Virus record (IMG/VR): IMGVR_UViG_2526164666_000022
Span: 1 to 6,871 of that record
Length of the DNA stretch: 6,871 nucleotides
DNA from: a virus
Taxonomy: Duplodnaviria; Heunggongvirae; Uroviricota; Caudoviricetes
Strand: one strand, 5' to 3'
The notes under the pieces are model-generated. The model searched no databases. It was not told the origin of the DNA and worked only from the letters and a program-made list of their open reading frames with translations. The translations under genes were made by a program, and so were the position numbers. Positions 6,552-6,871 of the stretch are shown in pieces. Numbering within the stretch: position 1 is the stretch's first letter; every line of letters begins with the position of its first letter.

Positions 6552-6871
6552 TGAGGTGTACTGGCAATAGCGGACACTACCATTTGTTCTTTTTTTAAGC
6601 AGCCATCTGATGATATTTTTCCCTGAAGGCTGCCGGGGAGATATTCCCCAGACGAGAGTGACGACGCTGACGATTGTAGAAAATCTCAATGTATTCCCGT
6701 ATTACTGAGATGGCTTCATCCCGGTTATTAAAACGATAGTGGCTCAGGCTCTCATTTTTCAGCGTTCCCCAGAAGCTTTCCATCGGAGCGTTGTCGTAAC
6801 AGTTACCTTTACGCGACATTGATGTTTTCAGACCAAACTGCTCCTGTATGACCCGGTAATCGTATGCGCAG
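6552..6871 (-). mobile_element. IS3-family insertion sequence (IS911-like), right-end portion; the boundary near 6552 is tentative
   Basis: Transposase orfB 3' end as above. IS3-family elements terminate 5'-TG…CA-3' a few tens of bp beyond the orfB stop; a TGAGGTG… motif begins at 6552, 43 bp from the stop. The other end is outside the window, so the inverted repeat cannot be confirmed. Confidence 0.55.
6595..6871 (-). CDS. IS3-family transposase OrfB (integrase catalytic-core C-terminus), 3' portion; N-terminus lies beyond the window end
   Basis: The minus-strand frame is open from the window edge: …AYDYRVIQEQFGLKTSMSRKGNCYDNAPMESFWGTLKNESLSHYRFNNRDEAISVIREYIEIFYNRQRRHSRLGNISPAAFREKYHQMAA*, with the stop read from 6595-6597. 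'SRKGNCYDNAPMESFWGTLK…YNRQRRHSRLG' is the conserved C-terminal signature of IS3-family OrfB; it resembles IS911-type elements from memory. Confidence 0.9.
   Translation of the reverse strand, partial: CAYDYRVIQEQFGLKTSMSRKGNCYDNAPMESFWGTLKNESLSHYRFNNRDEAISVIREYIEIFYNRQRRHSRLGNISPAAFREKYHQMAA

Follow-up and report, generated by a model that had tools for sequence, protein, structure and literature searches.

IS600 is a member of the IS3 family that was first described in Shigella sonnei and is common in Shigella and in non-O157 E. coli that produce Shiga toxin (STEC). The element IS629/IS1203 of EHEC O157 belongs to the same family, shares its transposition chemistry and is likewise found inserted in prophages beside effector genes. 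The models for the family, IS911, IS2 and IS3, transpose by a copy-out-paste-in route, and IS3-family elements of STEC can also yield adjacent deletions, especially with the IS-excision enhancer (IEE). Activity of IS600 in STEC has been reported together with its precise IEE-mediated excision, and in STEC O121:H19 a copy was described in lacZ, inserted with a 3-nt target sequence (PMC9397093).

The window analysed here, a stretch of 6,871 nucleotides of tailed-phage DNA, ends on its right-hand side within such an element, close to the effector gene nleC. Comparison with complete E. coli genomes indicates that this is, almost certainly, the edge of a complete and apparently functional 1264-bp IS600 that entered the 3′ end of a prophage dinI-like gene by simple transposition.

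The element at the right edge of the window

Sequence comparison identified positions 6552-6871 (minus strand) as 320 bp from the right-hand end of an IS600 of 1264 bp, an IS3-family element; they are element positions 945-1264 in transposase orientation, and the rest lies beyond the window edge. At 100%, this piece matches the first 320 bp of two full copies, one in the O103 strain RM8385 (L001, 9153-10416), a genome that also agrees with window 4455-6871 at 100%, and one in L007 (9555-10818), the complete genome closest to the whole window (99.7%). On the minus strand, a frame that is open from the window edge runs from 6870 to 6598 over 91 codons (CAYDYRVIQEQFGLKTSMSRKGNCYDNAPMESFWGTLKNE...FREKYHQMAA, also given as CAYDYRVIQEQ...FREKYHQMAA) and closes with a TAA stop, the complement of which stands at 6595-6597. 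The feature at 6595-6870 is the C-terminus of the IS600 transposase (orfB/OrfAB) with its integrase-core (DDE) domain, and was matched by the Pfam families rve_3 (E 2.6e-15) and rve_2 (E 1.2e-14) and by positions 289-369 of the 369 in the NCBIfam IS3-family transposase model NF033516 (E 6e-30, 104.7 bits). The latter score falls below the cut-off of 160 bits because the cut-off is set for the whole protein and the window holds only a fragment.

The full OrfAB, reconstructed from the same-junction genome L001, reached 407.2 bits on the same model (cut-off 160) and contains the domains HTH_Tnp_1, HTH_21 and rve (rve E 4.9e-26). In that copy, and outside the window, orfA comprises 100 codons with the Pfam domain HTH_Tnp_1, while orfB lies in the −1 frame, carries HTH_21 and rve, and overlaps orfA at a slippery site, A AAA AAG, at element positions 316-323; a hairpin with 12-nt arms follows 5 nt downstream of it. 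The RefSeq label is “IS3-like element IS600 family transposase”, with the note “programmed frameshift”. All of the defining features of the IS3 family that could be tested here are present.

The name IS600 rests on the annotations of matching copies and not on the ISfinder reference entry. Over positions 1-1264, the full element agrees at 99.5-99.8% with E. coli plasmid copies annotated “IS600 transposase” or “IS3-like element IS600 family transposase”; 890 plasmid records match the full IS600 (140 of them from Shigella), and the full copies that were compared differ mutually by only 4-8 substitutions. A literature search returned no statement on the length or the inverted repeats of IS600, the reference length of which we take to be 1264 bp.

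The right terminal inverted repeat (IRR; 6552-6578, 27 nt) reads TGAGGTGTACTGGCAATAGCGGACACT, with its outer end TG on the given strand, and a repeat search in L001 paired it with AGTGTCCGTTAAACTCAGGCTACCTCA, located 1210 nt away, at 19 of 27 complementary positions, so that the repeats are imperfect. The termini are of the TG...CA type (TGAGGT...ACCTCA), and the two 27-nt repeats bound exactly 1264 bp, at L001 9153-10416. Since L001 9153 corresponds to window position 6552, the TG at this position, which the first-pass annotation of the window had offered as a tentative terminus, is correct; it is the start of the IRR, and genomes free of the IS align only up to 6552. The same annotation, made from the letters alone, had recognized an IS3-type element and the minus-strand 3′ end of orfB entering from the right edge with a stop at 6595-6597, and both are confirmed, the former by the rve_3, rve_2 and NCBIfam matches and the latter by translation.

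Insertion site and insertion history

Window positions 6400-6871 were compared by megablast with 5,426 complete E. coli genomes. The whole query was found at 100% in 11 genomes, and the IS part only, annotated “IS3-like element IS600 family transposase”, in thousands more. Left and right junctions alike occur in these 11, and the record coordinates put the ends exactly 1264 bp apart in every one of them; none of the 11 is 100% identical to the window over its whole length. Directly outside both ends of the element stands the trinucleotide TCT, its left copy at window positions 6549-6551, as read base by base on both sides in two of the copies (L001 and L007), and a single TCT is present at the empty site. 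To obtain the latter, the IS and one TCT were removed in silico, and the resulting 600-nt query was recovered as one contiguous piece, at 99.8%, in 160 IS-free genomes. Those with a named serogroup include O26:H11 11368, O121, O145:H28 and O157:H7. Because the 11 genomes share an identical junction, the window's own copy is presumably complete as well, and would continue for 944 bp past the edge to ...AAACTCAGGCTACCTCA, after which TCTTTCAGCGTCTCC and then the main part of the dinI-like gene would be expected.

From what is known of the IS3 family, we infer that the copy-out-paste-in pathway brought the element here. OrfAB, made by −1 frameshifting, would cleave one end of the donor element to give a figure-eight and then a circular IS600 copy, which would integrate via a 3-bp staggered cut in the dinI-like gene; a cut of this kind would explain the duplication of TCT. 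This pathway fits with the TG...CA ends, with the duplication of 3 bp and with a frameshift site that is followed by a hairpin.

The polymorphism could in principle have arisen in the opposite direction, the element being there originally and later lost from the 160 “empty” genomes by precise IEE-mediated excision. IEE does promote precise excision of IS600 with restoration of the target gene in STEC O121 (PMC9397093), and precise excision is scarless and thus invisible to sequence alone. Such a history is nevertheless very unlikely: the occupied sites are few (11 versus 160), the sole occupied genome with a serogroup in its record is O103 whereas the named empty ones span O26, O121, O145 and O157, and one insertion is more parsimonious than many excisions. 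The 11-versus-160 polymorphism could include excisions, but is more simply read as one insertion that took place in an O103-type lineage; in either case, there is no adjacent deletion.

Neighbouring DNA and the outer boundary of the element

The dinI-like gene belongs to a lambdoid prophage that carries nleC, and is located at its right end; the prophage is integrated in ydfJ of an O103-type Shiga-toxin-producing E. coli lineage. The same prophage is present at ydfJ in the O121 strain RM8352 (L003), where the dinI-like gene is intact (243 nt) and the gene order is J, lom, tail fibre genes, a 430-bp gap, nleC, the spacer, the dinI-like gene and ydfJ, with order and spacing the same as in L001. 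In the window, the tail-fibre protein encoded at 3099-4454 is, by translation, rich in alanine, serine and glutamate over a long stretch, after which come collagen-like G-x-x repeats; the lambdoid side tail fibres of STEC prophages typically have this layout. Relative to L007 (99.7%), the window contains seven single-base indels, at 716, 2379, 3109, 3182, 3191, 4208 and 4224, mostly in short homopolymer runs, that split the tail-tip gene J into the frames 2-772 and 610-2475 and shift the frames of the tail-fibre gene as well. Either the sequencing or the assembly is in error at these points, or the tail genes of the prophage are genuinely decaying.

Further insertions were seen in O26:H11 11368 (L002), which is IS-free at dinI. 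About 450 bp past the same dinI-like gene, a tyrosine recombinase gene is interrupted by another full IS600 (7947-9210, 1264 bp, with AGA on each side), and further along ISCro1, of the IS66 family, interrupts an excisionase gene. This junction of the prophage gathers IS insertions independently.

On the window's side of the element, nleC occupies positions 5155-6141 (Pfam Peptidase_M85, E 8e-113) and the IS terminus at 6552 lies 410 bp downstream of its end at 6141, in agreement with the few hundred base pairs given in the first-pass annotation. That annotation had gone on to suggest that both the truncation of nleG and the gene-poor spacer that separates nleC from the IS could be due to an IS-mediated deletion or rearrangement, and had proposed to look for the target-site duplication, the absence of which would point to an adjacent deletion. 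The region does hold gene remnants, and IEE activity on IS600 has been described (PMC9397093), but for this copy the suggestion is refuted. The 3-bp TCT duplication is intact, the empty site is contiguous in the 160 genomes, and window positions 4455-6551, which span a tail-fibre assembly gene, a 63-aa ORF (the putative nleG remnant), nleC and the spacer, align without gaps and at 99.2% identity with the IS-free O26:H11 11368 (L002). The remnant and the spacer are unchanged in an IS-free genome, and so came before the IS and do not depend on it. Moreover, a leftward deletion starting from 6552 could not have reached ~5126, because nleC would have gone first, yet nleC is intact. The insertion of IS600 thus neither deleted nor rearranged the neighbouring DNA.

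The 63-aa ORF itself (4935-5126), which had been read as a truncated nleG, has no match in Pfam or NCBIfam, and a tblastn search of phages yielded nothing but copies of it that are 95-100% identical and unannotated, in 49 records of Stx1a/Stx2a-converting phages; this occurrence at an identity of at least 95% is a further argument against an IS-caused truncation. It is best described as a conserved remnant of this phage module with a putative origin from nleG, an origin that has no bearing on the IS question, as IS-free genomes carry the identical region. The spacer between nleC and the dinI-like gene (6142-6511) contains short pseudogene fragments that are identical in IS-free genomes: by annotation in relatives, a hypothetical/ferredoxin fragment at ~6263-6355 on the minus strand, and a capsid-protein fragment at ~6436-6501 on the plus strand. 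A consensus scan of 6100-6871 detected two promoter-like sites in all, compared with 1.5 expected, and no terminators; at the IS end it gave no promoter, outward-facing or hybrid, from which antisense transcription could run toward nleC. No effect on nleC is expected, because the IS lies downstream of the gene and no promoter-like site at the IS end faces it.

That the element is instead another IS3-family member (IS629/IS1203, IS911, IS2, IS3 or IS150), or that it ends ~10 bp further left, is scarcely credible: the best partial megablast matches to other copies do start at query 143-144, i.e., at window 6542-6543, but the copies in L004, L005 and L006 all begin with TGAGGTG, each with its own 3-bp duplication, and the full-length identity to elements annotated as IS600 is 99.5-99.8%. 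A terminus 9-10 bp to the left of 6552 was accordingly rejected, as the three such copies that were read start at the same TG. The IRR-side terminus is identical, with different flanks, in four other IS600 copies, and the duplications of other copies are TGT, ACA and CTC (L004, L005 and L006, respectively) and AGA. The flanks of the copies in L004, L005 and L006 are unrelated DNA that by chance resembles CCAGGTATCT, and the apparent extension by 9-10 bp looks like a chance resemblance of flanks that was favoured by the ranking of matches. Several IS600 copies have such loosely similar flanks, with CCAG..T.T just outside the IRR (window 6540-6551, L004 1498-1509, L005 1499-1509 and L006 1500-1511); this likeness is probably an artefact of ranking in the BLAST list, although it may reflect a weak target preference.

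The interrupted dinI-like gene and comparison with known insertions

In the first-pass annotation, the IS was described as flanking the effector locus. The IS3 family, the orfB stop and the terminus have stood, the deletion mechanism has not, and the gene into which the element is inserted had been overlooked. This target is the prophage dinI-like gene, which has 80 codons on the minus strand and is split after codon 69. Its displaced 3′ end is found at 6512-6551 (minus strand) and consists, by translation, of the duplicated D69 codon, T70-R80 and the stop at 6512-6514; the last 11 codons are at 6512-6547, also on the minus strand.

The intact 80-aa product, taken from the IS-free L002, matches Pfam DinI (PF06183, E 1.2e-17) over residues 14-78. 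In the NCBIfam DinI model NF007893, its residues 8-79 align to model positions 8-79 (of 81) with 52 bits, below the equivalog cut-off of 111, and the protein is therefore called DinI-like and not E. coli DinI itself; from the same alignment it follows that the residue numbering is that of E. coli DinI. The IS-bearing allele, in contrast to the intact one, runs 13 nt into the left inverted repeat and ends as ...QETLKDEVA followed by a stop, with a length of 72 aa. The insertion thereby swaps the last 11 residues of the DinI-like protein for EVA, and the residues lost include W71, W77 and F78 and the acidic D75 and E76. Replacement of L13, L21, W71, W77 and F78 by alanine impairs the stabilisation of RecA filaments by E. 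coli DinI, in which E69 and D76 make electrostatic contacts (PMC9926225). Because W71, W77 and F78, which DinI needs for its action on RecA filaments, have been cut away, the insertion has probably inactivated the dinI-like gene, as judged by the mutagenesis of E. coli DinI, of which the target here is a phage paralogue. It is a long shot, more speculation than expectation, that the loss of the DinI-like C-terminus might alter SOS dynamics or the induction of prophages, including Stx phages, in the O103-type lineage, perhaps reversibly through precise IEE-mediated excision as for the IS600 in lacZ of O121.

What has been found is a known element, in a simple insertion, in a known kind of place, and its main value is one of correct annotation: the right edge of the window is a standard IS600 copy, nleC and the remnant upstream of it owe nothing to this element, and one small prophage gene, the dinI-like gene, is disrupted. 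The insertion can also be used as a lineage marker: of the ~171 complete E. coli genomes with this locus, 11 have it.

Compared with IS629/IS1203, the element is a different one; the sequence matches IS600 at more than 99% and is never annotated as IS629. The closest described case is the IS600 in lacZ of STEC O121:H19 (PMC9397093), with which this insertion shares the element, a position very near the 3′ end of the gene, a 3-nt target and polymorphism among related strains; the target here is a prophage dinI-like gene and not lacZ. The element agrees with IS600 in general in its length of 1264 bp, in imperfect inverted repeats of 27 nt that have TG...CA ends, in duplicating 3 bp of the target, and in an orfA and orfB with an A6G −1 frameshift site, and nothing of substance differs from the annotated copies, to which the nucleotide identity is 99.5-99.8%. 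Only the insertion site, in the prophage dinI-like gene, is particular to this lineage.
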